Source: Bacilli bacterium
GTDB taxonomy: Bacteria; Bacillota_I; Bacilli_A; RFN20; CAG-826
Assembly (NCBI GenBank): GCA_045597865.1
Contig: JAZLKX010000057.1
Location: 22,321-86,320, forward strand
Direction: 5' to 3'
DNA: 64,000 nucleotides
Every line of letters begins with the position of its first letter. The first letter of the stretch is position 1. The notes beneath the pieces were generated by a model. That model had not been told where the DNA came from and ran no database searches. It saw only the letters and a program-made list of their open reading frames with translations. The position numbers were made by a program, and so were the translations under genes. Positions 18,674 to 59,634 of this stretch are shown here, piece by piece.

Positions 18674-18756
18674 GCAGCGGTGGCGGAATTGGTATACGCT
18701 CAGGCCTCAGAAACCTGTCCGAAAGGGTGTGAGTTCAAGTCTCACCCGCTGCACCA
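18674..18756 (+). tRNA. tRNA-Leu(CAG)
   Basis: GCAGCGG/CCGCTGC acceptor; CT-CAG-AA loop; variable arm; CCA. Confidence 0.9.
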
Positions 18757-18798
18757 ATTGTTGAAAATCTTTGATTGTTCTTGTAGAATAATCGCACT

Positions 18799-18883
18799 GC
18801 CCAAGTGGTGAAATTGGTAGACGCAATGGACTCAAAATCCATCGGAGCGATCCATGCCGGTTCGAGTCCGGCCTTGGGCACCA
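18799..18883 (+). tRNA. tRNA-Leu(CAA)
   Basis: GCCCAAG/CTTGGGC; ATGGA-CTCAAAA-TCCAT; variable arm; CCA. Confidence 0.94.
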
Positions 18884-18894
18884 GCTTAAATTTT

Positions 18895-19344
18895 ATGACT
18901 AGAAAAGAACTAGCAATTCAATATTTCAAAGAAGGATACAACTGCTCACAAGCGGTTGTTTTAGCTTTTAAAGACTTAATTTCAGATCCTGAAAAATTAG
19001 TAAAAATTGCTGCACCATTTGGAGGTGGTTTGTCTCGTATGAGAGAAACTTGTGGAGCAGTTTCTGGAATGGTTTTAGTGATGGGAAATTTATTTGGTTA
19101 TGATACTCCTGAAACTGGAGATAAAAAACATGAACTTTACGAAAATACCCAGGTTTTACTGAGGATTTTTGAGAAAAAGTACGGTTCTTTGACGTGTAGA
19201 GTGCTTCGCGGAATGACACAAATTCATGATGATTCGACGCCAACAAAAAGAGATCAAAAATTCTATGAAACGACGCCGTGCAGTGAACTTGTTGGAGGGG
19301 CTGCAGAGATTCTAGACGAATATCTAAGTAATAAGAAAAATTAA
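18895..19344 (+). CDS. C-GCAxxG-C-C family putative redox-active protein
   Basis: GYNCSQAV, FGGG, TCGAVSG, GSLTC and a late Cys; start reset to MTRK at 18895 because the longer ORF overlaps a tRNA. Confidence 0.85.
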   Translation: MTRKELAIQYFKEGYNCSQAVVLAFKDLISDPEKLVKIAAPFGGGLSRMRETCGAVSGMVLVMGNLFGYDTPETGDKKHELYENTQVLLRIFEKKYGSLTCRVLRGMTQIHDDSTPTKRDQKFYETTPCSELVGGAAEILDEYLSNKKN

Positions 19345-19394
19345 ATAGTAGTTGAATAATTCAACTCAATATCATATTATATTACTCGCCCTTT

Positions 19395-19470
19395 GCCGTC
19401 GTAGCTCAGTCGGTAGAGCAACTGTCTCGTAATCAGTAGGTCGGGAGTTCGATTCTCTCCGACGGCACCA
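19395..19470 (+). tRNA. tRNA-Thr(CGT)
   Basis: GCCGTCG/CGACGGC; CT-CGT-AA loop; CCA. Confidence 0.93.
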
Positions 19471-19485
19471 CGAAATACCAGCTTT

Positions 19486-19561
19486 GGATGTTTAGCTCAG
19501 CTGGGAGAGCATCTGTTTGACGTACAGAAGGTCATAGGTTCGAGCCCTATAGCATCCACCA
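19486..19561 (+). tRNA. tRNA-Val(GAC)
   Basis: TCTGT-TTGACGT-ACAGA; GGTTCGAG; CCA. Confidence 0.93.
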
Positions 19562-19620
19562 TTTAAAAAGATAACTCCCTTGTGGAGTTTTTTCTTTTAA
19601 AAGTATACAATAACAGCTAC

Positions 19621-19694
19621 GCACCGATAGTTCAGTGGTAGAACATCAGCTTCCCAAGCTGACTATGCGGGTTCGATTCCCGTTCGGTGCTCCA
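19621..19694 (+). tRNA. tRNA-Gly(CCC)
   Basis: GCACCGA/TCGGTGC; TCAGC-TTCCCAA-GCTGA; TCCA end. Confidence 0.94.
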
Positions 19695-33057: not shown

Positions 33058-34653
33058 ATGAAAAAAGCTAAAAACGCATTTGCGATAATTGGTATTGTAT
33101 TAGCAGTTGTCGCAGCCGCATTACTAATGTTACATCCAGTAATAGACGGATTAAGCGCTGTCATGTTCCCAGACGGGAAACCAGGACTACCATTTGATCA
33201 ATATTTTTCAATGGTAGGTGGCAGAGTCCAGAAACTTTGGGATTTTTCATGGTTTAGTGCATTCAGTCTTGAAGCATTAAAATCAAATTTCCCATTCATT
33301 GTTTGTGTTGTTGGTCTTGTCTTGTTTGTAGCATTCCTTATCATCATGATTTGCAAGAAACACTTTAAAGGATTTGGTTGGTTTGTACCAATGCTTGTTT
33401 TATTCCTTTTATCAATTGTTGTTTCCTCAGTTTACGTTAATCCTGGTGATCCATCATTCTTTAACGAATACAAACCATTAACTGAAGCTGGCGAAGGTTA
33501 TGGTTTAATTCAAGTTTCCGAAAACTTATTCTTAACCCAAATCTTAGTTTATGTTGGATTAGTATGTGCAATTATTGCTGCAGCAATGTTCATAGTTGCA
33601 TTAATTTTCTACATCATTTATGTTTGTGGTGAAGAAAGAGAAGAGGAAGCTGAAGAACCTGCTATTGAACCAAGTCAACCAGTCAGAGCAGCTGCTGAAG
33701 CAGCACCTGCACCAGTTGCCGTTCAATCAGCAATCGTTCCTGCACAAAAACCAGCAGCATCAGCTACAGTCGCAGCCGCACCAGCAGCATCAGCTACAGT
33801 CGCAGCCGCACCAGCTCCTGCAAAAGAAGAAGCTCCAGCCGAAGATAACGCCAAGGTTATTAGACGCATTCTTGTTCATAAGAGTGGTAAAGTTGTCAGA
33901 GTTCTTAATGAACATTACTATGACATTACTACTAACGTATTTGTTGACCAAGGTTACTATGATCCAAATAGACCAGCTGAAACCGAACAACAACATTACG
34001 AAAGACTTATTAATGAAGCAAAAACTGTTTTACAACCAGCACCAGCTCCTGTTGTTGCTCCAGCACCAGCTCCAGCTCCAGTTATCGTTGTAACTCAACC
34101 ACAACCACAAGTTGTTGTTGCACCAGCACCAGCTCCTGTTGTTGCTCCAGCACCAGCACCAGCTCCAGTCGTTGCTCCAGCACCAGCACCAGCTCCTGTT
34201 GTTGCACCAGCTCCAGTTGTTGTTGCTGCACCAGCACCAGCAAAAGAGAAAGTCGAACGTATTCCATTTACTGATCGTATGAAACATGCTGAAAAAGCAT
34301 TAAAATTCGCTTACAACGAAATTAAGAGTGAAATCTTATCATATGGTCTTAAATCACGTGTTTCTATCGCAGGTGATACATTCAGACTTCATACAAAGAC
34401 ATATGTCATGCTTGTTGTTGCAGGTAAGAGCTTAAAACTCTACTTTGCTTTGGATCCAAAGGATTATAAAGATTCCAAGATGCCACTTGGTGATGCATCC
34501 AAGAAAGTCCTCCATAAAGATACACCTCTTGTATTCAAAGTTAAGTCAGACTTATCAGTTCGTAGATGTAAACAACTTATCGCTGATTGTTGTGCTAAAG
34601 ACGGTCTTGAAAAAGGCGAATTTGTCAAACACGATCACGTTAAGGATTTATAA
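33058..34653 (+). CDS. 4-TM membrane protein with Ala/Pro linkers and a C-terminal globular domain (DUF5655-like, tentative)
   Basis: GGAGG RBS; TM region; [10 protein letters not shown] and PAPAPVV repeats; C-terminal [18 protein letters not shown]...[12 protein letters not shown]. Confidence 0.7.
33751..33810 (+). repeat. Exact 30-bp tandem duplication ([10 protein letters not shown] x2)
   Basis: CCAGCAGCATCAGCTACAGTCGCAGCCGCA repeated twice. Confidence 0.95.
34034..34243 (+). repeat. Coding low-complexity repeats (APAPAPVV)n
   Basis: Multiple CCAGCACCAGCTCCWGTYGTTGCW-like units. Confidence 0.9.
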
Positions 34654-34669: not shown

Positions 34670-34695
34670 AAAGGTGACCTTCGGGCCACCTTTTT
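34670..34695. terminator. Terminator with TTCG loop between convergent genes
   Basis: AAAGGTGACC-TTCG-GGCCACCTTT. Confidence 0.7.
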
Positions 34696-35230
34696 ATTTA
34701 CTCAATTTTTCTTTGTATAACTTATATATTAAGTCACTTGTTTCTTCAATTGACTTGTTTTCAGTTTTGATTATAAAATCAACTTTTCCAATCTTCTCCA
34801 ATGAGAAGTCATCAACATCATTTTTAAGACGTTTCGCAATATTTTCTTGTTTGTCTCCACGAGAAACCATGCGTTCGTGTCTTGTTTTTTCATCTGCAAT
34901 TAAAAGAAATGAAACTATGTGTTTATTATTTAATTTTAAGAATGAATGAAGACCATTTGGATCAAGCACGACAATTTTATTGTCATCAACTTGATCAATG
35001 CCGCATCCATAGTAATTTTCATTGTATAGTGAATGCTCTACAAATTTTCCTTCATTTAAACGTTTTGTAAATTCTTCTTTGCTAATAAAAAAATATTCAA
35101 CGCCATCAGTTTCGCCGACTCGTTTTTCACGTGTTGTAGTTGTGATTGCTTTAACCAAGCCATGACGTTTTTGTAAATCAAGGGCTGTAACTGTTTTTCC
35201 GCTTGCAGAAGCACCGACTAATAAAATCAT
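34694..35230 (-). CDS. gmk: Guanylate kinase-like protein
   Basis: GASASGKT P-loop, TTTTREKRVGETDGVEYFF, ENYYG. Confidence 0.85.
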   Translation of the reverse strand: MILLVGASASGKTVTALDLQKRHGLVKAITTTTREKRVGETDGVEYFFISKEEFTKRLNEGKFVEHSLYNENYYGCGIDQVDDNKIVVLDPNGLHSFLKLNNKHIVSFLLIADEKTRHERMVSRGDKQENIAKRLKNDVDDFSLEKIGKVDFIIKTENKSIEETSDLIYKLYKEKLSK

Positions 35231-35357: not shown

Positions 35358-35678
35358 ATGCCAAGAAATAGCAAAGACGGTTCATACTACAGATTTAACG
35401 AAATGGAAACTATCGCTAAGGTTTATTTTTTGCGTTCAAAGTATTTTAAAAACAATCTGCAAAAACCAGTTATTGAAACAAACAAAAAAGCTAGAAAGAT
35501 AAATAAAATTACTAAAGCTTTTAGTGCATTGAGTGAACCGTATAAAACAATAATTAGAAACACTTTCTTTGAAAAGAAAGATGAGTTTTGGTGGTCTGAT
35601 TATTATCCTAAAACTACATATTATCGAATGAGAAATCAAGCCATAAAAGCATTTTTGCTAGCGTATAAATTACAATGA
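35358..35678 (+). CDS. Small basic protein, MG284/MPN403-like (ArpU / sigma region 4-like C-terminus)
   Basis: GAGGAG RBS; FWWSDYYPKTTYYRMRNQAIKAFL resembles the ArpU/MG284 C-terminal helix pattern. Confidence 0.6.
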   Translation: MPRNSKDGSYYRFNEMETIAKVYFLRSKYFKNNLQKPVIETNKKARKINKITKAFSALSEPYKTIIRNTFFEKKDEFWWSDYYPKTTYYRMRNQAIKAFLLAYKLQ

Positions 35679-36625
35679 AAAGAAATCTAATATTACTAAT
35701 ATTGTCATCTTTTTTATGCCTTACAAGTACAGGGGCAGGAAAAACTAAAATCGGGATTAGTTCAATTAAAACTATGCCTTTTTATTTAGATGGTTCTACA
35801 ACAGACATAAAAATCTCTGTGACCGCAAGCAAAATTGACCCCGTTATTATAGAAGTTAAAGTAAGCAATGATTTTAATATTGATGGAGTAAGTATTTATA
35901 AAAATGTCTTGAATTCTCTCCAAACAGTAAATATCGAATATGATAATCGATATACAAGACCTGAGGATAATTATTTAATCGTTGATGAAAAGATAGGACC
36001 AAGTGTAAAAACTTATAAACATTATGTTAGTTTAGCCAAATCCTCTTCTATTTCTTTGACTGATCCTGTACATGTTTATAATTCAGTTTCACAAAATTAT
36101 TCATATAAGAGTGGAGTTTGGACTTCTTCTGTTGAAACATTAAAATTTTATAATTTTGAGGATCAATATGTTCCAGATTTCTATCATAAGATAGATCCTA
36201 CGTATTTTTATATTTGTCCAGAAAGGTCTTATGACGAAGACAATTTGATGTTTACTGGCGGTTATTTCACGATAACAAATAAAGATGGTTTATTTAATTC
36301 ATTTAACCACGATTCAGAAATAGCATTTATACCTCTTACATTAGTAAAAAAGGAAAACAGGTATGTTTTAGCCTTTGCAAATAATCTATATGTTAATACA
36401 ACAACTTTAGAAATGAGTTCTAGCTATAAAGTCGGATTTGTTAATACAAGATATTTTTATTTGCCTAGAAACGAGAAAAGATACGAAGACTTTTATGAGT
36501 GCGGAATAGTTTTAAATGGTTTAGGGCAAGATAAATCTAATTTTATTTCTAAATTTAAATATAAGTCATTAAAAAATATATTTGGGGATTGCCGCAATAG
36601 CAAATATTGCATTATCAATAGCTAA
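35675..36625 (+). CDS. Hypothetical secreted beta-rich protein (MG285-like, tentative)
   Basis: Signal peptide MKRNLILLILSSFLCLTSTGA; C-terminal IFGDCRNSKYC Cys pair; overlaps previous stop. Confidence 0.55.
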   Translation: MKRNLILLILSSFLCLTSTGAGKTKIGISSIKTMPFYLDGSTTDIKISVTASKIDPVIIEVKVSNDFNIDGVSIYKNVLNSLQTVNIEYDNRYTRPEDNYLIVDEKIGPSVKTYKHYVSLAKSSSISLTDPVHVYNSVSQNYSYKSGVWTSSVETLKFYNFEDQYVPDFYHKIDPTYFYICPERSYDEDNLMFTGGYFTITNKDGLFNSFNHDSEIAFIPLTLVKKENRYVLAFANNLYVNTTTLEMSSSYKVGFVNTRYFYLPRNEKRYEDFYECGIVLNGLGQDKSNFISKFKYKSLKNIFGDCRNSKYCIINS

Positions 36626-36626
36626 T

Positions 36627-37034
36627 ATGACAAATTGTATCTTCTATTCATTATTTTTTGTTCTTTTCTTAAATTTTTCATTTGGATCTTTAAGAATTTC
36701 ACAAATCAATAGAATTTTTATGTCAATGTACAAGGGATTATTTGAATCGTGCACTGTTACGATTGATCAAAATGGTGAACCGATATTTCCTTATTATAAT
36801 CAAAGTTTATTAGAAGAAACAGCTCAAAGTTATGTTGATGAAAATATCGGAAAATTAACACCGTCTTATACCTTAACAATAAATTTTTATAAAGAAAACG
36901 GCTATTCACATTGTTCAAAAAGAGACTTAGCTAGGTGCGTGAAATTAAAGCTTGAAACTAGAATTAATTATTTATTCTCTTATGAAAAGGAACAGGTTTA
37001 TATGATTCAAGAAGGGGCAATTGATAATGAATAA
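36627..37034 (+). CDS. Single-TM pseudopilin-like protein (MG286-like, tentative)
   Basis: N-terminal hydrophobic helix, ISQINRIF amphipathic helix, internal Cys pair. Confidence 0.55.
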   Translation: MTNCIFYSLFFVLFLNFSFGSLRISQINRIFMSMYKGLFESCTVTIDQNGEPIFPYYNQSLLEETAQSYVDENIGKLTPSYTLTINFYKENGYSHCSKRDLARCVKLKLETRINYLFSYEKEQVYMIQEGAIDNE

Positions 37035-37980
37035 TAAATTAATTGAATACATCGAAAAGTCCTTTTTGAAAGACTTGATCTGCCAAGAAGGAGTAACTGA
37101 CATTTCTTATAACGGAAAGTTTATTTTCTACTTGCACAATACTGAGGGAAGGAAAAAAGCTGATATAAATGTAAGCAGCAACGAAGTTTTAGACTTTCTT
37201 AGGCAAATTGCCAACTATTCAGAGAAACAATTTTCAGTAACAACTCCTCTTTTAGATATTTCAGTAGGAAAATATCGCATTAATGCAGTTCATCCATCAA
37301 TTGTTCGTGTTAAAAACGAAAAAGCATGTTCTTTCGCTATTAGAATAAGTTCAGAGGAATCAAGAATCATAAACGATAATGATTTTATAGATGAAAAATG
37401 TCGTTCTTTTCTTTTTGAAGCAATGAAAAATGAGAAGTCGATAGTCATTGCAGGCCCAACCGGTAGTGGAAAAACTGAATTGCAGAAATTTTTGCTATTA
37501 AACCTCAAAAATTGCACCCGTGTCATAGTTATTGACAATGTTGAGGAGTTGGAAAATGTGCGTTTGAATAATGAAATAGACCTCACAAGTTGGCAAATTT
37601 CTCAAAATAATTTAAATGCCTCAATTCAAGAACTTGTCCGTAATGCGTTAAGAAGTAATCCTGATTGGATTGTTATAGCTGAATCTCGAGGAAAAGAGAT
37701 GAATGAAGTATTAAATAGTGTAATGACTGGTCATCCAATAATTACAACTTTGCATGCAGAAGCAATAGAAGACATACCTTTACGTATTTGTAGAATGGTA
37801 GAAATGGCTGACGTGACTCAAAAGCACGAAAGCATTCTAAATGATATTTATGAACACATAAAAGTATGTGTTTTTCTAAATAGAAAAATTGATTCAGATA
37901 CAGGTGTAAAACGATATGTTGAAGCAATCGGTGAATTACAAAAAGACAAAACAATGAAAATTATTTATAGGAGGAAATGA
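37027..37980 (+). CDS. CpaF/TadA/VirB11-family secretion ATPase
   Basis: VTDISYNG, RINAVH, Walker A GPTGSGKT, IDNVEEL, ALRSNPDWIVIAESRG, TGHPIITTLHA. Confidence 0.92.
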   Translation: MNNKLIEYIEKSFLKDLICQEGVTDISYNGKFIFYLHNTEGRKKADINVSSNEVLDFLRQIANYSEKQFSVTTPLLDISVGKYRINAVHPSIVRVKNEKACSFAIRISSEESRIINDNDFIDEKCRSFLFEAMKNEKSIVIAGPTGSGKTELQKFLLLNLKNCTRVIVIDNVEELENVRLNNEIDLTSWQISQNNLNASIQELVRNALRSNPDWIVIAESRGKEMNEVLNSVMTGHPIITTLHAEAIEDIPLRICRMVEMADVTQKHESILNDIYEHIKVCVFLNRKIDSDTGVKRYVEAIGELQKDKTMKIIYRRK

Positions 37981-37981
37981 C

Positions 37982-38686
37982 ATGAAAGGAATCACAATAG
38001 GTTTTTTAATTTTGTCTATAGTTGTAGGGATTATGTGCTATCTTACAACATCAAATTTATATTTTGCATTAGGTATATTTTTGATTTTTATTCTTTATTT
38101 CTTCTTGTTTCAATACAAAAAATTTAAAAAATATTTTTCGATAGTTAGAAGAGTACATTCTTGCTATTTTTTTGTTAATTCCTTTATAGTTTCGATGTCA
38201 GTAAAGGAATCGTATGAGGAAGCCTATAACAGCGGTATCAGAATTAACGATTCAAAGTTGCAATTTTATTGTAATGAGTTAAATGATTTATCTGATTATG
38301 AAAAAGTTAAATATTTGCGAAATTATTTTAAATTAGCAATATACAAAATGTTTTTAAATATTTTAGAAATTTATCAAGAACAAGGCGGTAATATTTTAAC
38401 AATGAGTGACAATCTAATTCGTGAATGTACAAGGACCGAAAAAACGCTTATTGAATCATATAATTTAGGGATCAAACATATCATTGAATTTATCATACTT
38501 TGGGCACTATCTTTTGGTGTACTTTTGTTCCTCAAATTTGGTATCGGAGACTTTTATGATAAGATGCTTCAAAACCCTATATTTCCACCCTTAATTTTAG
38601 TGTTCTTTTTTATCTTTTTAATTTCAATTCACTTGTTCTTTAAAACGTTTACAAATTTAACAATTAAGGAGGATATTATTGAATGA
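37982..38686 (+). CDS. TadB-like platform protein (T2SS F domain)
   Basis: 2 TM - soluble domain (FVNSFIVSMS...YQEQGGNI) - 2 TM; directly after the ATPase. Confidence 0.7.
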   Translation: MKGITIGFLILSIVVGIMCYLTTSNLYFALGIFLIFILYFFLFQYKKFKKYFSIVRRVHSCYFFVNSFIVSMSVKESYEEAYNSGIRINDSKLQFYCNELNDLSDYEKVKYLRNYFKLAIYKMFLNILEIYQEQGGNILTMSDNLIRECTRTEKTLIESYNLGIKHIIEFIILWALSFGVLLFLKFGIGDFYDKMLQNPIFPPLILVFFFIFLISIHLFFKTFTNLTIKEDIIE

Positions 38687-39351
38687 AAAAAATACTCGCT
38701 CAAATAGAAAGACTTGGCCTTTCTGCCAAAAAAGAATTTGCAATTTTAACAGTTGTAGATTTGATTTTGTTTGCTTGTTCAATTGTTGCTGGAATATATG
38801 GGAAAAACAGTCTATTTTTCATATTTGGTCCAGGATTTGCAGTGATTTTTTCAATTTTATACTTAAGCCGATATGGTAATTTGATCAATAAAATTAATAA
38901 CAATAACTTACTTGAATTTTCTGAACTTTTTGGTTTCTTCAAGATATATATTAAAAATGGTTACAACGTATACAATGCATTAAAAGAAATCTCATATTTT
39001 GCTAATGACAATTTAAAAGAATTATTGCAAATTTTATTGAATGAAATTGACGAAGACAAATCGGTTCAACCATTTATTAATTTTTCGAAAAATTTTGATG
39101 AAATAATTGTTGAAGAATTAATGATTTCAATATACCAAATGATTGATGAAGGAGAGCAGTCAAATTATCTTGTTCAATTTGAGTTTATTTTTGACAAATT
39201 TTCTGATTCATTATTGCAAAAAGAATTAAAGAAAAAAGACTCGAAATTAGGAACGCTTTCAAGTGCTCCTCTTATTGGCTCATCTTTCCTAATTGTGGTC
39301 ATTACAATAGGCATTATTGGATTAATCGGAGATATTACGAATGGGATATAA
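38683..39351 (+). CDS. TadC-like platform protein (T2SS F domain)
   Basis: 2 TM; FFKIYIKNGYNVYNAL motif; C-terminal TM. Confidence 0.72.
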   Translation: MKKILAQIERLGLSAKKEFAILTVVDLILFACSIVAGIYGKNSLFFIFGPGFAVIFSILYLSRYGNLINKINNNNLLEFSELFGFFKIYIKNGYNVYNALKEISYFANDNLKELLQILLNEIDEDKSVQPFINFSKNFDEIIVEELMISIYQMIDEGEQSNYLVQFEFIFDKFSDSLLQKELKKKDSKLGTLSSAPLIGSSFLIVVITIGIIGLIGDITNGI

Positions 39352-39682
39352 ATTAGGTTTTATTTTGTCATTATTTTTAGTAGTTGAATTGTTCATCTTG
39401 GCAGGAGATTTATTTACTGCCCAGGTGATTTATACCAATCTAGATGCTGTGAGTATAACAGCTGGCAACATCATTTCTTCAAAGGGAGGTATAACAGATG
39501 AAGTTAGAACATTTGTTTTGAACAATACCGGAGGCGAAATAACTGCTGTTGGAGACGAAACTCCTTTATTTGGATCTATTTATGTTTTTAAAATTTCCAA
39601 AACCTATCAACCTATGAATTTCTTTACAGACGAATCGGAAATTTCGGTTGTACGCAGCGTCGTCATTGGCTATTACAATTAG
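39341..39682 (+). CDS. TadE-like pseudopilin (tentative)
   Basis: N-terminal TM KLGFILSLFLVVELFILAGD, then LDAVSITAG helix and short beta region. Confidence 0.55.
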   Translation: MGYKLGFILSLFLVVELFILAGDLFTAQVIYTNLDAVSITAGNIISSKGGITDEVRTFVLNNTGGEITAVGDETPLFGSIYVFKISKTYQPMNFFTDESEISVVRSVVIGYYN

Positions 39683-39695
39683 AAAGGAGAAAAGT

Positions 39696-39896
39696 ATGTC
39701 TGAAGTTAAAGGCACTTTATTAACCATTATTCTTGTATTAGCAGTATTTGCAACAGTTTTTACAGCAGTCACACTTGCTTTTCAAAGAAAAGCATCTGAT
39801 GTAGCTACTAAAATTGAAAATGCTGGAGAAACAGCGGCACCAGCTGCTGCACCAGCTGCTGCAGCAGGAGTAAATGTATTGACTTATCATTATTAA
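39696..39896 (+). CDS. Flp-like major pilin candidate (66 aa)
   Basis: Strong AAAGGAG RBS; MSEVKG then hydrophobic helix, amphipathic helix and Ala/Pro tail; last gene before terminator. Confidence 0.6.
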   Translation: MSEVKGTLLTIILVLAVFATVFTAVTLAFQRKASDVATKIENAGETAAPAAAPAAAAGVNVLTYHY

Positions 39897-39907
39897 TCAA
39901 TGCAATC

Positions 39908-39930
39908 AAGGGAGGCCTAGCCTCCTTTTT
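39908..39930 (+). terminator. Terminator of Tad-like operon
   Basis: GGAGGC-CTA-GCCTCC plus T run. Confidence 0.8.
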
Positions 39931-39999
39931 CTTATATAATATAAAATTCTTTATTTTTATATTCTATGTGATACAATAATCACACATTGAGGTAAATTT

Positions 40000-40224
40000 A
40001 TGGATAAACTTGCTGAAATTAAAGAACGTCTTGCTAAAGCTGCTCACAAAGACAGCATTGACGATTCTATGAAATTAAGAGAGCTTGGTATTGATTCTCT
40101 TGACATTGTTGAACTTCTTTTACAACTCGAAGAGGATTATGGAATCCACTTTAATGACATGGATATGTCAAACCTTGTTACAGTAAAAGATTTACTCGAT
40201 GTAATAGCAAAACAATTAAAATAA
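40000..40224 (+). CDS. acpP: Acyl carrier protein
   Basis: LGIDSLDIVEL phosphopantetheine site; LEEDYGI; TVKDL. Confidence 0.92.
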   Translation: MDKLAEIKERLAKAAHKDSIDDSMKLRELGIDSLDIVELLLQLEEDYGIHFNDMDMSNLVTVKDLLDVIAKQLK

Positions 40225-50168: not shown

Positions 50169-53100
50169 ATGCTAGAACTTAAGAATATTGTCAAAGACTA
50201 TGTTAGCGGTAATAACGTCACTCATGCACTTAAAGGCATTTCTGTTAACTTCAGAAAGAATGAGTTTGTTTCAATTTTAGGCGCATCTGGCTGTGGTAAA
50301 ACAACCACATTAAATATCATCGGTGGACTTGATCGTTATACATCAGGTGATTTAATTATTAACGATAAATCTACTAAAAATTATACTGATAGAGATTGGG
50401 ATACATACCGCAACCATTCAATTGGTTTTATTTTCCAAACCTATAACTTAATTGGTCATCAAAATATTCTTAAAAACGTCGAATTAGCACTTACTATCTC
50501 CGGAATCGGCAAAGCCGAACGTAGAGGTAGAGCCATTGAAGCCTTAAAGAAAGTCGGTCTTGAAGGCATGGAGAAGAAAAAACCAAATCAACTTTCTGGT
50601 GGACAATGTCAAAGAGTTGCTATTGCTCGTGCTTTAGTTAATAATCCAGAAATTCTTCTCGCAGATGAACCAACTGGTGCTTTGGATTCTGAAACATCAG
50701 TTCAAATCATGGATCTTTTGAAAGAAGTAGCTGCAGATCGACTTGTTATCATGGTTACCCACAACCCTGATTTAGCTTATAAATATTCAACACGTATTAT
50801 CAAAATGAGTGATGGCGTCTTAATTGATGACTCAATGCCGTTTGACGGAGTTGAGGCACCAGTTTCGATTGAAACACCGCAAGTAAGCAAAGGCAAAAAG
50901 AAATCTGCAATGTCTCTTAAAACTGCTACTGGTTTATCTTTAGCTAACCTTTTCTCGAAATTAAAAAGAACCATTTTAGTTACTATTGCTGGTTCAATCG
51001 GTATTATTGGTGTTTCTGCAGTTCTTGCAGTTAGACAAGGTGTTAAGGATTTTATCGGAGACATGCAAGATGATATGCTTTCAAGTTATCCAATTGAAAT
51101 TGCAGAAGAAAGTGTTGACTATACATCACTTATGAGTGGTTTAAGCGCAGATGTTTCTTCTAAGGCGCTTCAAAATTTTGACATCAAGACACAAGTTGGT
51201 GTTGATTCAATGATTAATTATTTAATGACAGCTTATAGCGACATTACTTCGGTTAAGACCAATACTATAAATGATGAATTAGTCGACTATATCGATCAAA
51301 TTGATCCAAATACAGTTTCTTCTATATATAAAAACTATTCAATCGATCCAACAAACTCTATTTTTGGTTCATGGCAAAACAACTTTGGTGAAAAGGGTCA
51401 CAATGATGTAGCCTCTTTAAATGGTTTAACTCAATCATACATCTCTGAACTTAAAACAGTTGAAGGCTTTAAATCGTATGCTTCATATGTTGATTTATTT
51501 ACTGGTTTTATGAAAGAAATGCCTGGTTCTACAGATTATATTAGTGATCAATATGATTTAATAGCTGGCTCTAAGTTTGCAGAAGAAGAAAACGAAATGA
51601 TGTTAGTTGTTGATCAAAACACAACTCTTACTGATTTGCTTTTAGCAGAGATGGGCATTTATGATCATGATGAATTTATTAATATTGCTAAACAAGCAAT
51701 TAAGAAAAATGAAATTCCAGAAGAATGGACCAAAGAACAAAAAGATGCTGAAATTCAACGTCTTGAAGAAAAATATCCATATACAAAAACATTTAACTTT
51801 GAAGATTTGTTAAATCGTAAGTTCTATTATTTCCCACAAGATCAACTTTGGGAAAACGGTGTTGTTTCAGCAGACGAAAAAGTTTGCAACGTTGTTCTTT
51901 TAAAGCTTGATACAGTTCAAACGACACCTGTAGTGGTTATGATGACAACCGCCTTATGCAACCTTGAATATCAAACAAATGATAGAATCACAGGAACCTA
52001 TCTTTCAATGGGAGGTACTGGTTCTATTGAGTTTAAACAATTAGATTTTCAACGTTTAGATGAAACATTTGTTCCAGATCCAGAACATCTTGCTAACAAT
52101 CTTGTTGGCAAATGGGTTTCATACAATAATGAAAAGAAACCTGAAGTTACAATCGATTTTGATGATAACATTCCTGGTGTCGGCTATGCTGTTTATTTTG
52201 ATGATTCTACAACACCAGTTCGTATGACTGGAACAATCAAAGAAGATGTTAAAACTATTCAGGGTTATAATTACAATGCTTTTATTACTAATCAAGATAT
52301 GCTTGCAAAACCTGAAGAGCATAAAGGTTTAGAGATGAAAATTACCGGCATCTTAAGATTAAAGGATACAAGAAAGTTTGGTACCTTAAGCAGAGGTGTT
52401 TATTATAGTCAAAAATTTGCAAATAGATTTATAACTGATGCAAATAATAGTGATGCATTATTAACTAAGGCTTTTGAAGATCACATCAAAGTTTATAAGG
52501 ACAAAGAAAAAGAACAACAAGGTTTCTCGGCTTATGTTCAATTCGACTACCTTGATCATACTAACGATAACGAAGATGAAGGACATAACGGTGTAGTTAA
52601 ACATGGTTATGCCAACGCTTTAAACGGTGATATGTCTAGCTCATTTGCAGATTTGTTCTCAGCTATTACAGGAATCAACTATTTAGAAACAGATTCAGTT
52701 CATTTGCGTTCTGTTTGTGGTTACAAAACACTTATATCTAGAGATGAAACTGAAAAGATTACAGATATTGATTTCAAAAAGCTTCCAAAAGAAATAGATA
52801 TTTATCCTCTTAACTTTGAGACAAAAGACAAAGTCACAAACCATTTAAATAAATGGAATGGTGAAGATTCAATAACTGTGTTTAAAGGAACACCAAACGA
52901 AAAAGTTTTAACCGCAAAAGAACGTGATTCCTTAACATATACTGATACTATTTCATTAATTATCGCAGTTATTAATACCTTGATTGATGCAATTTCAATC
53001 GCTCTTGTTGTCTTTACATCACTTTCACTCGTTGTTAGCTGCTTCATGATTGCAGTTATTACATACATCTCAGTTGTTGAGCGTATTAAAGAAATTGGTG

Positions 53101-53393
53101 TTATACGTTCACTCGGTGGACGTAAACGCGATGTTGCAAGTTTATTTGTTATGGAAAACTTGTTAACAGGTCTATTCTCAGGTTTGTTTGGTGTAGGTAT
53201 AACTTATTTACTTCAAATAATACTTAACATCTGTTTAAAAGCAGCATTTGGAATTGTAATTGCTAACTTTACAATTGGAACCGCCGCGATCATGATTGGT
53301 GTTTCAATCTTGCTCAGCGTTGTTTCAGGATTTATTCCATCACAGAGTGCTGCACATAAAGATCCAGTTGTTGCATTGCGTACAGCTGAATAA
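50169..53393 (+). CDS. MacB/FtsX-type ABC transporter, fused ATPase-permease
   Basis: GASGCGKT, LSGGQCQR, LLADEPTG; TM1 AGSIGIIG; SVVERIKEIGVIRSLG; DPVVALR. Confidence 0.92.
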   Translation: MLELKNIVKDYVSGNNVTHALKGISVNFRKNEFVSILGASGCGKTTTLNIIGGLDRYTSGDLIINDKSTKNYTDRDWDTYRNHSIGFIFQTYNLIGHQNILKNVELALTISGIGKAERRGRAIEALKKVGLEGMEKKKPNQLSGGQCQRVAIARALVNNPEILLADEPTGALDSETSVQIMDLLKEVAADRLVIMVTHNPDLAYKYSTRIIKMSDGVLIDDSMPFDGVEAPVSIETPQVSKGKKKSAMSLKTATGLSLANLFSKLKRTILVTIAGSIGIIGVSAVLAVRQGVKDFIGDMQDDMLSSYPIEIAEESVDYTSLMSGLSADVSSKALQNFDIKTQVGVDSMINYLMTAYSDITSVKTNTINDELVDYIDQIDPNTVSSIYKNYSIDPTNSIFGSWQNNFGEKGHNDVASLNGLTQSYISELKTVEGFKSYASYVDLFTGFMKEMPGSTDYISDQYDLIAGSKFAEEENEMMLVVDQNTTLTDLLLAEMGIYDHDEFINIAKQAIKKNEIPEEWTKEQKDAEIQRLEEKYPYTKTFNFEDLLNRKFYYFPQDQLWENGVVSADEKVCNVVLLKLDTVQTTPVVVMMTTALCNLEYQTNDRITGTYLSMGGTGSIEFKQLDFQRLDETFVPDPEHLANNLVGKWVSYNNEKKPEVTIDFDDNIPGVGYAVYFDDSTTPVRMTGTIKEDVKTIQGYNYNAFITNQDMLAKPEEHKGLEMKITGILRLKDTRKFGTLSRGVYYSQKFANRFITDANNSDALLTKAFEDHIKVYKDKEKEQQGFSAYVQFDYLDHTNDNEDEGHNGVVKHGYANALNGDMSSSFADLFSAITGINYLETDSVHLRSVCGYKTLISRDETEKITDIDFKKLPKEIDIYPLNFETKDKVTNHLNKWNGEDSITVFKGTPNEKVLTAKERDSLTYTDTISLIIAVINTLIDAISIALVVFTSLSLVVSCFMIAVITYISVVERIKEIGVIRSLGGRKRDVASLFVMENLLTGLFSGLFGVGITYLLQIILNICLKAAFGIVIANFTIGTAAIMIGVSILLSVVSGFIPSQSAAHKDPVVALRTAE

Positions 53394-55169: not shown

Positions 55170-55247
55170 GGCGAGTGTGGTGAAGAGGCCAAACACAACC
55201 GGCTGTGAACCGGTCATTCGTGAGTTCGAATCTCATCACTCGCCCCA
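55170..55247 (+). tRNA. tRNA-His(GTG)
   Basis: G-1 plus GCGAGTG/CACTCGC and C73; ACCGG-CTGTGAA-CCGGT; CCA. Confidence 0.95.
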
Positions 55248-55426
55248 TTCAAGTGAGATAGAACCAATGCATAGCAATTGGTTCTTTTTTCTTTAAAATC
55301 AATGCTTTTTTATTGTTTTGCAGAACCTTTCCTATTTTCATCATAATGTTAGTAAAGAAAAAGTGTTTGAACACTGAACACGCATAACAGATATGTGAGT
55401 GGTGGTGCAAACTAAAAATAAAAAGA

Positions 55427-55470
55427 AAATCCCTGGTTTAGAACGTTTCGTCCAAACTCAGGGATTTTTT
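55427..55470. terminator. Hairpin terminating the recombinase operon
   Basis: AAAATCCCTG...CAGGGATTTT with A/T runs on both sides. Confidence 0.65.
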
Positions 55471-57131
55471 TATTTGTTGATAAATATTCCAAAGTAACAA
55501 ATTGAAGTTGATGATCTAATTTTGTACCTATATTCGCAAATGTATTGCATAGGTATTTTATTCGGATTTAAAGGCAGATGACTTAAGTCTTCAGAGCCAA
55601 CAACAAATATCAATCTATCGCGGTTTAAAATAATTAAATTTTTAAATAGTTTTCTAAAATCAAAATCGCCTATATCGTCTGTTTTTGGAATTCCATCCAA
55701 AGCTTCAATTTCTATTTTTGCTCTTGTTTCAGGGGATATTGAGGTTATTTTATGATTCTCACAAATTAGTTTCTTATTCTCTAGATCTGATATGGTTTTT
55801 CTTAACTCATTAGTTAGTGAAATAAAAGCCTCGTCTTTAAAATCAGAATATTTGTTCAATTGAATTTTAAGTTCATTAATTTGTTTATTAATATTCTGCA
55901 TTTCTTGATTATCGTTAATTATTGAAATATCCGTGTTTTCAATAGGATTTTTACTAAATTCCTTAATTAAATCATTTTTAAACTCTGTTCTATTATCTTT
56001 TAATTTTTGAACCAAAATAGGAATCATTTTCTTTAAATCCGAAATATAAACAGATTCGCTTTCTGAACATTGATGCCTGTGTTTATTTGAAGAGCAATAT
56101 AGCATCTCAACCATTCGATTAAATTTCCTAAAATAGGTATTATGACAATAAGGACAAAATCCAAAAGAAGTAAAAGGTGTGATTTTGTTAAGGCAATTTT
56201 TGTGACCCAATTTGTACTTTTCCGCATTTGTAATCATTACTTGTTGGCATTTAGCCCAAAGTTCTCTTGTTACTATTGGCGGAATTGCATCTTTTATTAA
56301 GTACTGTTCTTTTTGGCCTTTGTTAATAATTCTTTTTTGCGATATAGGGTTTTCCGAATATGACTTCTGCAATAAAACATCTCCACAATACTTTTCATTT
56401 TTTAACATTCTTCTAAGCGTTGATGATGACCATCGTCCGTTTCCGGTGATTGTTGGAACGCTGTTATATTCAAGAAAATCTGCTATCGATGCTGTATTAT
56501 TTCCTTCAGCGTACATTTCAAATATTTTTCTAACATATATGGCTTCTTTCTCGTTTATTACAATTTTTCTATTGTCATCAAAGCGGTAACCAAATAAACG
56601 AGCAGCATCAATATAGAATTGGCCTGTTTCCATTTTTCTTTGGTTTGTCCATTTTACATTATTGCTTATTGAAACAAGTTCTTCTTGTGCGAACTGTGCA
56701 AACATTGTTATGAAAGTGTCTGACTTGGTGTCTAGAGATGAAAGATTTTCTTTTTCAAAATAAACCTCTATTCCCTCATCTCTTAAATCTTGAATAGTGG
56801 CCAATAAATCTATAGTATTTCTAGCAAAGCGCGATATAGATTTAACCAGGATTACATCAATTTCATTTGCTAAAGCTTTGTTTATCATTATTCTGAATTG
56901 ATTTCTTTTTTTAATTGAAGATCCTGATATTCCATCATCAGCATAAATACCTGCAAATTCCCAAGCTGTGTTTTGATTAATTAAAGTAGTGTAATATCTA
57001 ATTTGATTTTCTAATGAATTTTCTAGATCCAATTTATCTCTTGAAATTCGTGCATAAGCAGCAACTTTTAGTTTCTGACCTAGAGGAATTTCGTGCAACA
57101 ATTTTAAATTCTCAATCATGTTATTCTCCAA
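55470..57131 (-). CDS. Large serine recombinase 2
   Basis: VAAYARISRD (catalytic Ser), KSISRFARN, FGYR, LKNEKYCGD, Zn ribbon CPYC. Confidence 0.93.
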   Translation of the reverse strand: MENNMIENLKLLHEIPLGQKLKVAAYARISRDKLDLENSLENQIRYYTTLINQNTAWEFAGIYADDGISGSSIKKRNQFRIMINKALANEIDVILVKSISRFARNTIDLLATIQDLRDEGIEVYFEKENLSSLDTKSDTFITMFAQFAQEELVSISNNVKWTNQRKMETGQFYIDAARLFGYRFDDNRKIVINEKEAIYVRKIFEMYAEGNNTASIADFLEYNSVPTITGNGRWSSSTLRRMLKNEKYCGDVLLQKSYSENPISQKRIINKGQKEQYLIKDAIPPIVTRELWAKCQQVMITNAEKYKLGHKNCLNKITPFTSFGFCPYCHNTYFRKFNRMVEMLYCSSNKHRHQCSESESVYISDLKKMIPILVQKLKDNRTEFKNDLIKEFSKNPIENTDISIINDNQEMQNINKQINELKIQLNKYSDFKDEAFISLTNELRKTISDLENKKLICENHKITSISPETRAKIEIEALDGIPKTDDIGDFDFRKLFKNLIILNRDRLIFVVGSEDLSHLPLNPNKIPMQYICEYRYKIRSSTSICYFGIFINK

Positions 57132-58806
57132 TCGTAATTGTTCTATATACTAAGGAACCATTCTTTCCTTTAAAAAACTCTGGTTTAACACTAAGCCATT
57201 TTGGAATATCGATTCTGATTTTTTCTAGCTCTTCTTTATTTAAATTCTTATCAGACTTAATGACCAATAATGAGTTATCCTTTAGCCTAAAAACCTTCTT
57301 TATTATTTTAGAAATCAGTCTTTGTGTTAAAGACGAATCATCCTTTAGATATTCATCAAAATCCCTATGAAAAACCTTATTATTTGTAGCAAATGAACAG
57401 TCAAATTCTAATTCTGACAATGTTTTTTTATGCTGATTTATATCATTTCGAATTCTTTCATATTCTTTTTTATAGTGATCAATTGGAAGATCTTTTTTTA
57501 CTTGGTCCTGAATCAATGTTGCTAATTGATTTTCTAGGCTAGCTATATTTTCTTTAATAATTTTTGTTTGCGCATAGTAAGTAGACACTTTTTTATTCTC
57601 AATAATTGCGTTTGATAATATATCGTTTTCTATTTTTGAAATATCGGCTTTTACCAAAGAAGAAATAAATTCATATGCTAAATTAAAATCAATTGTTTCT
57701 TGCGCTTCACATCTTTTATATGTTTTTTTATTTTTAAGTTGATATTTGCAGGTTAAAACATATTTATCGTAATTTCCACGTTTGTAATGAAATTTTTGTA
57801 GGTTTCGACCACATTCAGCGCATTGAAATAAACCAGATAATGGGGAATTTGCTTTGTTATCCATCGCTGCATTATAACTTTGTTTTCTATTCCTCCTTAC
57901 TTCTTGGGTGTACATAAACATGTCTTTTGGAATAATGGCCTCATGATGATTAGCAACTAGAAATTGTTCTACTTGCCCCTCATTAGGAGCTCTTTCGTGA
58001 GTTAGATAGTTTTTACAATAAGTTTTTTGATAAACAAAATCTCCACAGTATTTCTCGTTTGATAGAATCCTCTCAATCATTGAAGGACACCAATTCAAAT
58101 CCCCCTTTACTGTCTTCAACTCTTTTTTGATTAAATGATTAATTATTTCTTTGTATGTAAAACCATTAAGAAACATCTCAAAAATAAGCTTAATTGTCGG
58201 TGCTTCTTCTGGATTTATTATTAGTTCATTATTTCCTTTATTGAAATAGCCTAAGATTTTTTTACCATAAATGTATTTTCCGCTTCGCATTCTTGCTCTT
58301 ACGCCCCATGTGACATTTGTTGAAATTTGTCTGCTTTCTTCTTGCGCAAAAGAAGCGTAAATCGTAAGCATTGTTTCAGCACCTGAGTCGAGTGAAGAGA
58401 TATTTTCTTTTTCAAAGAATATTTCTACCCCTTTAGCTTCTAATTCTCTTTTTGTTCTTAAACAATCGACTGTGTTTCTAGCAAATCTCGAAATTGATTT
58501 AACAAGAATAAGGTCAATTTTGCCACTCAAAGCATCTTTGACCATTTGTTTAAAGCCATCACGTTTTTTCAAACTAGTTCCAGTGATTCCTTCATCTGAA
58601 TACAAGCCAACAAACTCCCATTGAGAATTATTAGAGATTTTTTCTTCATAAGCTTTTTTCTGATTATCAAAAGAGTTTAATTGATCTTCAAAATCCGTTG
58701 ATACACGAGCATAGGCACACACTTTTTTCTTTCTTTGCATTCCAGTATTTACATCAACAATGACTTGCTGCATTTTAGGAATGACTATCACTCTAGATTC
58801 ATTCAT
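57121..58806 (-). CDS. Large serine recombinase 1
   Basis: VCAYARVSTD, KSISRFARNTVD, AQEESRQIS, LSNEKYCGD, LSGLFQCAECG. Confidence 0.95.
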   Translation of the reverse strand: MNESRVIVIPKMQQVIVDVNTGMQRKKKVCAYARVSTDFEDQLNSFDNQKKAYEEKISNNSQWEFVGLYSDEGITGTSLKKRDGFKQMVKDALSGKIDLILVKSISRFARNTVDCLRTKRELEAKGVEIFFEKENISSLDSGAETMLTIYASFAQEESRQISTNVTWGVRARMRSGKYIYGKKILGYFNKGNNELIINPEEAPTIKLIFEMFLNGFTYKEIINHLIKKELKTVKGDLNWCPSMIERILSNEKYCGDFVYQKTYCKNYLTHERAPNEGQVEQFLVANHHEAIIPKDMFMYTQEVRRNRKQSYNAAMDNKANSPLSGLFQCAECGRNLQKFHYKRGNYDKYVLTCKYQLKNKKTYKRCEAQETIDFNLAYEFISSLVKADISKIENDILSNAIIENKKVSTYYAQTKIIKENIASLENQLATLIQDQVKKDLPIDHYKKEYERIRNDINQHKKTLSELEFDCSFATNNKVFHRDFDEYLKDDSSLTQRLISKIIKKVFRLKDNSLLVIKSDKNLNKEELEKIRIDIPKWLSVKPEFFKGKNGSLVYRTITIGE

Positions 58807-58839
58807 ATATCCGTTTTTCCTTTCAATATATAAATCACT

Positions 58840-59079
58840 CTAAAGAGTGATTTTATCAAGTTGATTAGACTCTTTTGAAATGAAAAAAGGAAGGCCTAAA
58901 TCCCTTCTTACTATTGATAGTATTTTAATTCCTTCATCCGTGGTTAAAAAGCCGGAACTAATTAGAGAATTTACAACAGTTTTATACTTTAAAAATTCAT
59001 CTTCTTTTTCTTTGTTATATGGAAGTATTCCCTTATCTCTCAAAGGGTTTAAATTATCGATCAGTATTTTTGTTTCCAT
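58840..59079 (-). CDS. Small SHOCT-like protein upstream of tandem recombinases
   Basis: YKTVVNSLISSGFLTTDEGIKI helix pair; GGAAGG upstream on the minus strand. Confidence 0.55.
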   Translation of the reverse strand: METKILIDNLNPLRDKGILPYNKEKEDEFLKYKTVVNSLISSGFLTTDEGIKILSIVRRDLGLPFFISKESNQLDKITL

Positions 59080-59344
59080 TAGGATGCCTTCCTATCTAGA
59101 AACGAATTGAAAACGTAATTATTTAAACAAAAATTTCGTTGCAAGTATATTTAGACGGGGCGACAATTTTACTTTTCTGCGTTTAATTCAGATTTGGATA
59201 TTTTGATTTTCACTTTGTGAATTGTTTTTAATAACAAATTTTAAAATCATTTTGTCACCCGCTCTAAATTATTTTTTACTAACAGTTCTTAATACAATTC
59301 CCTTATTCAAATCCGGATGAAAACCGCGATGGAAAGGGGGAAAC

Positions 59345-59629
59345 ATGGCTACAAAAAGTTTAAAAAAGCGCGTTCCTTTAATTCGAATGTATTTAGTCGA
59401 ATATAGGAATAAGTTCAATTATTCTCAATTGGATGTTGCTAACAAAATTAACATGGTTCATAGCCTTTATAACCAAATTGAAAATGGTAAACAAGGTCAT
59501 TTAATGAACGCCGAAAAGTTAATGGCATTAGCTAATGCTTTCAATGTGGATGTGAAAGAAATATGTGAAGCAGAAGTAGCATATTTGAAAAAATATCGCA
59601 TTTTAAATGGCGAAAGAAATAAGGAGTAG
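59345..59629 (+). CDS. XRE-family HTH regulator
   Basis: LVEYRNKFNYSQLDVANKINMVHSLYNQIENG. Confidence 0.88.
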   Translation: MATKSLKKRVPLIRMYLVEYRNKFNYSQLDVANKINMVHSLYNQIENGKQGHLMNAEKLMALANAFNVDVKEICEAEVAYLKKYRILNGERNKE

Positions 59630-59634
59630 ATCAT

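Follow-up and report, generated by a model that had tools for sequence, protein, structure and literature searches.

A type IV filament-like operon between gmk and acpP in gut Bacilli and its apparent relatives on conjugative plasmids

Introduction

Which machine is encoded by eight tightly packed genes, a single secretion ATPase among them, that sit between the core genes gmk and acpP of an uncultured gut bacterium? We address this question for an operon of a Bacilli bacterium (assembly GCA_045597865.1, contig JAZLKX010000057.1), of which a stretch of 64,000 nucleotides (nt), called the window below, was analysed. The window is a piece of low-GC chromosome (about 0.29-0.39 guanine plus cytosine, GC) of Bacilli type that carries housekeeping genes (PolC, tsf-pyrH-frr-uppS-cdsA-dxr-rseP, cdaA-glmM, gltX) and many tRNA genes. 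An earlier note on this DNA had read the operon as a minimal, divergent pilus locus of the Tad/Flp kind. Our analysis suggests, with somewhat better than even confidence, that it encodes a minimal and divergent type IV filament machine, passed on vertically and probably used for attachment; the label 'Tad/Flp-like' proved too specific. Judged by sequence, the nearest annotated relatives of the operon appear to be the 'putative VirB11' block of Gram-positive conjugative plasmids such as pLS20, a link that is new here.

Results

The operon and its inheritance

The operon consists of eight co-directional genes on the plus strand (35358-39896), all of them present as open reading frames (ORFs). 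Coordinates are positions within the window, and the set of calls was refined against the starts of orthologues (protein lengths in amino acids, aa).

g1, 35358-35678, plus strand, 106 aa: MG284/MPN403-family protein, regulator-like (resembles ArpU and sigma region 4)
g2, 35675-36625, plus strand, 316 aa: secreted or anchored protein with two predicted beta-sandwiches; candidate adhesin or tip protein
g3, 36627-37034, plus strand, 135 aa: bitopic membrane protein, in the position of pLS20 gene 36
g4, 37027-37980, plus strand, 317 aa: secretion ATPase of the PilT/VirB11 class
g5, 37982-38686, plus strand, 234 aa: platform-like membrane protein, in the position of TadB and of pLS20 gene 38
g6, 38683-39351, plus strand, 222 aa: platform-like membrane protein, in the position of TadC and of pLS20 gene 39
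g7, 39341-39682, plus strand, 113 aa: minor-pilin-like protein
g8, 39696-39896, plus strand, 66 aa: candidate major pilin, Flp-sized
Intrinsic terminator, 39908-39936, plus strand: stem and T-run at the operon end (hairpin core 39908-39928)

The gaps between consecutive genes, from g1 to g8, are -4, +1, -8, +1, -4, -11 and +13 nt, and the terminator has a stem of 9 base pairs (five of them G-C), a 3-nt loop and a T-run, which bears out the earlier description of eight packed genes closed by a terminator. The ribosome-binding site of g1, GAGAGGAG, lies upstream of its start; that of g8, which had been called strong for a 66-aa pilin-like protein, is indeed so, with a Shine-Dalgarno sequence AGGAG 7 nt 5' of the ATG. 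The orthologues agree on the ATG at 36627 as the start of g3 and leave a TTG at 36582 unsupported. Upstream the operon is flanked by gmk (34694-35230, minus strand) and downstream by acpP (40000-40224).

A scan for relatives, with one genome per species, returned 17 loci. Four of these (L014-L017, from Bacteroidota/Balneolota) were left out because they gave merely short P-loop matches at 29-40% identity, and 13 (L001-L013) were kept. The latter come from species-level gut metagenome-assembled genomes titled Bacilli bacterium, Candidatus Enteromonas, or uncultured Mollicutes or Firmicutes, sampled from horse, sheep, human and other sources, and encode the orthologous ATPase at 48-82% identity. 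All eight genes, in identical order, were found by tblastn and ORF listings in each of the 8 relative loci with ORFs listed; where the sequence extends at least 5 kb upstream (9 loci), gmk is found there in 8, with L008 as the exception, and acpP lies downstream in all 11 loci long enough to reach there. The identities of ATPase and gmk, in per cent, are 82 and 89 in L001, 62 and 83 in L003, 52 and 49 in L004, 51 and 53 in L005, 51 and 54 in L010, 48 and 42 in L011, and 48 and 39 in L012. This tracking of gmk identity by ATPase identity, together with the fixed synteny, indicates that the operon is vertically inherited within its clade, as its placement between two core genes had led the earlier note to suppose. 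A patchy distribution, which along with a grouping of the ATPase with conjugative VirB11/TrbB had been named beforehand as speaking against the earlier reading, was not seen; the locus is syntenic across the relatives.

Further components of pili and conjugation systems were sought with Pfam (E<=1e-5) in 56 ORFs of the window, picked from 84 ORFs of at least 90 aa plus the 74-aa acpP; the eight operon ORFs were scanned apart, and overlapping shadow ORFs were excluded. Peptidase_A24, TadZ/ParA-type, CpaB, secretin, VirB4, VirD4 and relaxase families had no match in these 56 ORFs, nor in the 43 scanned of 51 flank ORFs of five relatives (the remainder being already identified genes or shadow ORFs). 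Those flanks carry CTP synthase, diacylglycerol kinase, purA/purB and Trk genes, and no transfer genes. The absence of TadZ/CpaE, RcpC/CpaB, prepilin peptidase, secretin, VirB4 and relaxase, first claimed for the locus, holds there and extends to both sets of ORFs.

In a lineage with reduced genomes, and with no peptidase found nearby, the operon might be a decaying remnant without function. The eight frames are, however, intact in 9 genomes whose ATPases show 48-82% identity, leaders and motifs are invariant, and the family of g6 has 363 representatives (at 50% identity, E<=1e-3). We therefore give this explanation hardly any credence.

The secretion ATPase

The protein g4 matches Pfam T2SSE (E 4.7e-22) and has a Walker A motif (GPTGSGKT, 143-150), a Walker B motif (VIVID...EE) and a His box (TGHPIITTLH), so that the 317-aa ATPase with intact motifs is as first described. 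It reaches the cut-off of no curated NCBIfam model. The best score, 127 bits with the VirB11 model TIGR02788, is about half of the cut-off of 249.95; the model of the actinobacterial TadA family, TIGR03819, gave 118 bits, also under its cut-off, followed by TrbB TIGR02782 with 88.7 bits (cut-off 304.55), FlaI with 85 bits and ComGA NF041000 with 61 bits (cut-off 300). Matches to sequences of the PDB were similarly spread, with archaeal GspE 2oap at 1.5e-16, VirB11 at about 1e-15, FlaI at 1e-11 and CpaF at 3e-11. On these matches g4 would stand about equally far from archaeal GspE, VirB11, FlaI and CpaF.

The platform-like membrane proteins

The two proteins encoded after the ATPase have a common layout, in which transmembrane helices at either end enclose a soluble middle part; in g5 the transmembrane windows are 3-43 at the N-terminus and 170-218 at the C-terminus. 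Pfam T2SSF was seen, under its cut-off, in 3 of 9 orthologues of g5 (best 6.3e-5) and in 2 of 9 of g6 (best 0.014). An AlphaFold2 (AF2) model of g6, with a predicted local distance difference test score (pLDDT) of 83.4, was compared with the PDB by Foldseek. The top matches were the cytoplasmic domains of EpsF, OutF, PilC and TcpE, and SpoIIIAB, with prob 0.66-1.00, target-normalised template modelling (TM) scores of 0.55-0.63 and E 0.1-1.8, none at or below 0.001. The model of g6 resembles the cytoplasmic domains of GspF, PilC and TcpE, and it was the lack of this T2SSF fold that had been named in advance as telling against a pilus. The model supports, short of proof, a platform fold of the GspF/PilC type in g6; in g5 such a fold is likely, again short of proof. 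Of the TadB/TadC-like platforms proposed earlier, the structural likeness of the g6 model stands, while the Pfam match stays under its cut-off throughout.

A predicted complex of g5 with g6 scored 0.59, against 0.00 for the best of three controls, with contact agreement between runs of at least 95% and partner pLDDT of at least 77. Of 157 solved complexes 116 reach the mark for such scores, as do 2 of 215 mismatched pairs, but only 18 of those 157 solved complexes, as well as both passing mismatches, have scores of 0.60 or less. The prediction thus weakly supports a pairing of the two proteins.

All 120 of the 120 g6 relatives among the matches listed are without a Pfam domain, and the four named ones are hypothetical proteins. 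When 32 of the 150 listed representatives were scanned, T2SSF was found in two (E 0.0017 and 0.0067). Three members of the family, P0383 (404 aa), P0385 (387 aa) and P0299 (337 aa), are of about double length, with the g6-like part C-terminal and no Pfam domain; they may be fused g5-g6 platforms, like the platform proteins encoded by one gene.

The small pilin-like proteins

The last protein of the operon, g8, starts with the leader MSE[IV]KG, followed by a hydrophobic helix of about 22 residues (transmembrane window 11-29) and a variable tail. In 11 copies from 9 genomes M1, S2, E3, K5, G6, L8, L9 and F18 are invariant, and every copy reads MSE[IV]KG-[QTA]LL[GTA]..., with neither E at +5 nor Y at +6. 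The protein before it, g7, has the leader M[GS][YS]K[LIVM]G and then a hydrophobic helix (transmembrane window 7-25), with M1, K4, G6, L9 and S10 invariant in 9 orthologues. Both look like short class III (prepilin) leaders, with a presumed cut after Gly6. A weak match to DUF6112 was seen in 3 of the 11 g8 copies (best 3.5e-4, under the cut-off), and the Atlas look-alike of g7 is DUF4320 (0.91). Two relatives, L011 (10786-11147) and L012 (10699-11078), carry two tandem g8 genes with an identical MSEIKG leader and differing tails, which suggests duplication and diversification of the pilin.

The third small protein, g3, has a transmembrane-like window at its N-terminus (1-19), about 110 aa outside and no Gly-ended leader; searches with Pfam, NCBIfam and PDB profiles assigned it to no family. 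Neither g3 nor g7 matched TadE in Pfam or NCBIfam, and the hhalign comparison of g7 with one Burkholderia TadE/TadG-family protein was not significant, so that the TadE-like protein of the earlier note could not be upheld. A secretion ATPase, a platform-like pair and small pilin-like proteins nevertheless support the view that the operon shares the parts list of type IV filaments.

Comparison with Tad, archaeal and ComG systems

The operon resembles Tad/Flp loci in its single ATPase from the CpaF/VirB11 side, its two single-domain platform-like proteins and its candidate pilin of about 60 aa. A further likeness is the small protein with a pilin-like N-terminus (g7) after the platform genes, comparable to the secretin-less versions of Bacillota/Actinomycetota, and g6 aligns with canonical TadC (hhalign P 4.4e-4). 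The alignments of g5 with TadB/TadC and of g8 with the Flp of Bacillus thuringiensis and Burkholderia were not significant. Unlike Tad loci, the operon has no TadZ/CpaE, CpaB/RcpC or TadV; TadZ/CpaE and CpaB/RcpC are present in the canonical comparison loci of B. thuringiensis and Burkholderia. The ATPase, too, is shorter (317 aa, against 476-487 aa in three CpaF references), as are the platform proteins (222-234 aa, against 288-328 aa). Flp pilins, as characterised in the relevant section of PMC3244431, have a cleavage site, E at +5 and Y at +6. Because several defining Tad/Flp features fail (the Flp motif G/xxxxEY is missing, g7 has no TadE match, and the locus is without TadZ, CpaB and TadV), we do not file the operon as Tad. 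The tad-like loci of Clostridia listed as 'no Flp' in PMC3244431 were considered and set aside; as given there, they carry tadV, tadZ and rcpC, which are absent here. According to statements in PMC6668835, prepilin peptidases can be encoded elsewhere, and Tad is thought to derive from archaeal systems that have two platform genes.

The best PDB sequence match of g4 is the archaeal GspE-type 2oap, which recalls archaeal type IV pili of the Epd-like kind. Archaeal pilins have short KG-ended leaders and no E at +5, and can in this be compared with the leaders of the operon; the host here, however, is a Bacilli bacterium. Bacilli themselves have pilins with short KG-ended leaders (compare MSE[IV]KG) in ComGC, and ComG is a type IV filament of single-membrane cells.

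The likeness to ComGC leaders would fit a competence pseudopilus for DNA uptake, which in this lineage of many auxotrophies would stand in for ComG or act beside it. The sigma-like gene g1 at the head of the operon would suit such a role, and reduced genomes may often retain DNA uptake as a source of nucleotides. In some bacteria, pili of the Tad type take up DNA, as mentioned in PMC8513845. However, comEA, comEC and dprA were not found among the scanned ORFs of the window, and the score of g4 with the ComGA model is far from the cut-off. The platform is split between g5 and g6, whereas a single ComGB protein holds both T2SSF domains, and Com pilins are larger and have F at +1 and E at +5, which g7 and g8 lack. 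A fast-evolving beta-sandwich protein such as g2 (see below) also suits an adhesin better than a DNA receptor. We consider a competence machine quite unlikely.

Relatives on conjugative plasmids

A tblastn search with g4 of 72,556 plasmids gave 1042 records. The best matches are on conjugative plasmids of Bacillus and Listeria, with at most 34.8% identity over 93% of the query, and are annotated 'CpaF/VirB11 family protein'. Three plasmids were compared, namely pDSYZ of B. velezensis, which belongs to the pLS20 family, one from Listeria, and one from B. thuringiensis that resembles pAW63. On each of them, the ATPase gene is preceded by a gene for a large surface protein and then one for a protein of about 127 aa with an N-terminal transmembrane segment, and is followed by genes for proteins of about 270 and 245 aa with transmembrane segments at both ends and for one of about 120 aa with an N-terminal transmembrane segment. 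Single-transmembrane proteins of about 47 aa end the block in pDSYZ and the Listeria plasmid, and a gene for a VirD4-like coupling protein comes next after the block in both Bacillus plasmids. The block corresponds to pLS20 genes 34 and 36-41. In the gene list of PMC8557374, gene 37 is a 'putative VirB11' and genes 36 and 38-41 are unknown; the block adjoins an adhesin described there as required for mating in liquid. The corresponding part of the pAW63 paper (PMC1196294) notes only a 'VirB11'.

Gene order and transmembrane layout of the block are those of the chromosomal operon, and the sizes are similar. Likeness was also detected between g6 and p39 (profile 3.7e-7; hhalign P 8.8e-6), between g7 and p40 (profile 1.4e-3 and 1.2e-2; hhalign P 3.1e-5) and between g5 and p38 (hhalign P 8.5e-4 over 194 columns). 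Weak hints point from both p40 and g7 to DUF4320 and from p36 to DUF5411; a literature search on DUF6112, DUF4320 and DUF5411 gave nothing useful. The two kinds of locus differ in several respects. The plasmid ATPases have 402-441 aa with an extra N-terminal part, against 317 aa in g4, at about 29-35% identity; the tiny plasmid proteins (47 aa) lack a Gly-ended leader and show no detectable likeness to g8; and the Tie adhesin of pLS20 is far larger than g2, from which its thioester domain is absent. In addition, the plasmid block is inside a type IV secretion system (T4SS) operon with VirD4 and VirB4, whereas the chromosomal operon lies between gmk and acpP without transfer genes.

The relation was examined in a tree of 20 ATPase sequences (9 chromosomal, three plasmid 'VirB11', three CpaF taken from loci with TadB/TadC neighbours, four T4SS ATPases and, as a long-branched outgroup, E. 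coli HofB), which holds no archaeal references. The chromosomal clade is monophyletic (support 100/100). Its sister is the plasmid 'VirB11' clade (100/99), and a CpaF of B. thuringiensis joins the pair (95/95); the gene of this CpaF adjoins those of CpaB and a TadZ-like ATPase. Two proteobacterial VirB11 form a separate group (96/97), and all CpaF come to lie on one side at just 51/65, in a tree of these 20 rows without archaeal references. The operon appears to be the chromosomal sister of the pLS20-type block, with a shared origin.

Such an origin suggests another explanation, namely that the operon is a domesticated piece of Gram-positive conjugation machinery, in which a VirB11-like ATPase would energise or gate a channel for export of DNA or protein and the small proteins would be channel subunits. 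The nearest relatives are indeed in conjugation operons, beside VirD4-like and pLS20_p028-family genes (as annotated in the parts of PMC8557374 and PMC1196294 on these operons), and one of them is beside a TrbC/VirB2-family protein. The best NCBIfam score of g4 is that with VirB11, and the GC of the operon is slightly low. Forcing the clade to group with the T4SS ATPases made the tree 9.4 log-likelihood units worse, which the approximately unbiased (AU) test did not reject (p 0.066). On the other side, tests for a conjugative T4SS failed: the VirB11 score is half of the 250-bit cut-off, that of TrbB is not reached either, and no VirB4, VirD4 coupling protein, VirB6/8, relaxase or oriT-type genes were found among the scanned ORFs of the window and of five relatives' flanks. 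The operon keeps its place in the chromosome and diverges in step with core genes, the best tree places the clade with CpaF from a Tad context and away from proteobacterial VirB11, and filament systems are where the modelled fold of g6 and Gly-ended leaders are at home. We regard a domesticated export channel as unlikely. In the literature searched, the plasmid block is nowhere interpreted as a type IV filament system, and such a locus is not described for RF39/RFN20-type Bacilli; PMC12306168 concerns other lineages.

Several neighbouring plasmid genes were also observed. In pDSYZ the block is followed by three tandem, near-identical genes for single-transmembrane proteins of 47-48 aa (L018, 11953-12431) and by a gene for a 79-aa protein with two transmembrane segments (L018, 12958-13197). 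The position of the latter is similar to that of a gene annotated as TrbC/VirB2-family slightly beyond the block of the pAW63-like plasmid (L027, 10590-10871). A VirB2-like protein may therefore exist on these plasmids alongside the tiny single-transmembrane proteins. On a Ralstonia plasmid, a gene annotated 'Flp pilus assembly complex ATPase component TadA' (L021, 1078-2127) lies directly before TrbC/VirB2, VirB3 and VirB4; because of this context we take it for a T4SS ATPase of the TrbB type, a case which shows that such ATPase names are loosely applied.

The regulator-like protein g1 and the secreted protein g2

Apart from g1, the non-ATPase proteins of the operon are without a curated family match, and the family of g1, MG284/MPN403 (NCBIfam NF045770; 68.9 bits, cut-off 37.3, E 2.6e-19), is itself without an assigned function; the literature search gave nothing on it. 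A weak match to ArpU TIGR01637 (0.0019) was also seen. Among 9 g1 orthologues, NF045770 was found in 6 (E<=0.1, best 3.4e-20) and ArpU in 3. A regulatory role of g1 is plausible from these resemblances. The family is named for proteins of Mycoplasma genitalium (MG284) and M. pneumoniae (MPN403). In M. genitalium, MG284 may lie a few genes upstream of an acpP homologue, which would parallel the order of g1 and acpP here.

The secreted protein g2 starts with a hydrophobic signal and has no Pfam, NCBIfam or Atlas family. Since the family search gave 5 proteins, its AF2 model rests on 14 sequences (pLDDT 78.3, predicted TM score 0.72); it is all-beta, with two beta-sandwich lobes. The Foldseek matches were generic two-lobe beta-sandwiches (VPS26/arrestin, Fn domains of ScpA, the adhesins ClfB and SdrG) with TM scores of at most 0.24, and we therefore claim no family for g2. 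No other gene of the operon evolves as fast: identity to L001 is 46%, against 79-88% for g4-g7. Its best-conserved 15-aa stretch lies at the C-terminus (FGxCxxSxYC[IV]V), where the monomer model has a pLDDT below 50.

A signal peptide and co-transcription with the ATPase would also suit g2 as the substrate of a piston of the kind found in type II secretion systems, in which a short pseudopilus would drive g2 or other proteins across the wall. The core parts are common to any type IV filament system and would serve this as well. In a single-membrane cell, however, the step is needless after Sec export, and the literature searched held no precedent; we consider a piston very improbable.

Other features of the window

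The region 55171-64000 (GC about 0.30) is an integrated mobile element or prophage that begins directly after tRNA-His (55171-55247). Two large serine recombinases are encoded on its minus strand (55470-57131 and 57121-58806); further products are a helix-turn-helix protein, a tyrosine integrase (59635-60582), a Bro-N/KilAC antirepressor, and Lin1244-like and sigma-r4-like proteins.

Just upstream of gmk (33058-34653) lies a gene for a 531-aa protein without a Pfam family, which has several N-terminal transmembrane segments and a long Pro/Ala-rich repeat (PAPAPVVA...). In L001 and L002 its C-terminal part of about 265 aa keeps 91-94% identity, whereas the N-terminal part has 49-50%; the conserved C-terminal part was found in 8 related loci.

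Two tRNA clusters (11154-11445 and 18674-19694) comprise genes with anticodons that start with C or G, namely Pro-CGG, Arg-CCT, Ala-GGC, Leu-CAG, Leu-CAA, Thr-CGT, Val-GAC and Gly-CCC, and Trp-CCA is at 43631; the tRNA set of the window is not minimal, and there is no sign in the window of UGA decoded as Trp. Two fused proteins were also seen: a spermidine-synthase domain joined to a membrane part like that of the major facilitator superfamily (11495-13228, 577 aa), and an ATP-binding cassette ATPase joined to FtsX-type permease domains (50169-53393, 1074 aa).

Discussion

The results point to an uncharacterised subtype of type IV filament, as the earlier note had proposed, by way of the parts list, the model of g6 and the conserved synteny; the deep position of the ATPase, where the grouping with T4SS ATPases is not rejected, is less certain. 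A number of observations weigh against a filament. No prepilin peptidase was found in the locus, the 64-kb window or the flanks of five relatives. The platform assignment leans on the single AF2 model of g6, with Foldseek E values of 0.1-1.8; T2SSF is below its cut-off in every orthologue of g5 and g6, their profiles gave only chance-level matches to PDB sequences, and hhalign detected no paralogy between the two (prob 1.5%). The profiles of g3, g7 and g8, likewise with chance-level hits only, matched no solved pilin of the PDB by sequence, and the Flp E5/Y6 motif is lacking in 11 of 11 g8 copies. On the plasmid side, g3 with p36 and g8 with p41 gave no significant hhalign match, and the block, being within a T4SS operon, may serve the transfer channel and not a filament. 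The AU result counts here too, as do the limits of the ATPase tree (20 rows, no archaeal references, a long-branched outgroup). The GC of the operon, 0.29-0.30 against 0.33-0.36 in its neighbours, is weak evidence at most.

For a type IV filament machine we infer filament formation, leader cleavage, the function and the roles of g1, g2, g3 and g7 as follows. In a single-membrane cell, hexameric g4 would dock on a membrane platform of g5 and g6, each of which would contribute a single GspF-like cytoplasmic bundle in the manner of TadB and TadC. A prepilin peptidase encoded elsewhere would first cleave the pilin g8 and the minor-pilin-like g7 behind Gly6; the platform would then lift g8 from the membrane into a thin filament, primed or capped by g7 and perhaps g3. 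The secreted g2 would be displayed on or beside the filament as its binding part, possibly by way of its conserved C-terminal strand, and g1 would control transcription of the operon. In other type IV filaments, the last 10 or so residues of a tip adhesin dock on a minor pilin by beta-strand addition, according to the account in PMC13533445; speculatively, the C-terminal strand of g2 might dock onto g7 or g3 in the same manner. By analogy, attachment to host material or to other cells seems the most likely function, because the surface protein g2 evolves fast and the plasmid cousins lie beside an adhesin of liquid mating.

More tentatively, and with clearly less confidence than we have in the chromosomal filament, the operon and the blocks of the pLS20 and pAW63 type could together form an unrecognised class of type IV filaments of single-membrane Bacillota, with one branch fixed in the chromosomes of small-genome gut Bacilli, probably for attachment to a host or to partner cells, and another branch in conjugation operons. 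Gram-positive elements are said in PMC8557374 to form no conjugative pili. If the proposal is true, some Gram-positive conjugative plasmids would, contrary to this usual statement, build a pilus-like filament for finding mates, and the secreted protein encoded upstream (g2 here, Tie in pLS20) would be presented by the filament, perhaps through a C-terminal strand on a minor pilin. The link to pLS20 genes 36-41 thereby offers a testable idea for the long-standing question of how mating cells that carry Gram-positive conjugative plasmids come into contact in liquid, in a plasmid that works in laboratory Bacillus subtilis. The small-genome, uncultured Bacilli of animal and human guts are poorly understood, and a conserved surface filament would give a handle on their attachment, feeding or DNA exchange.

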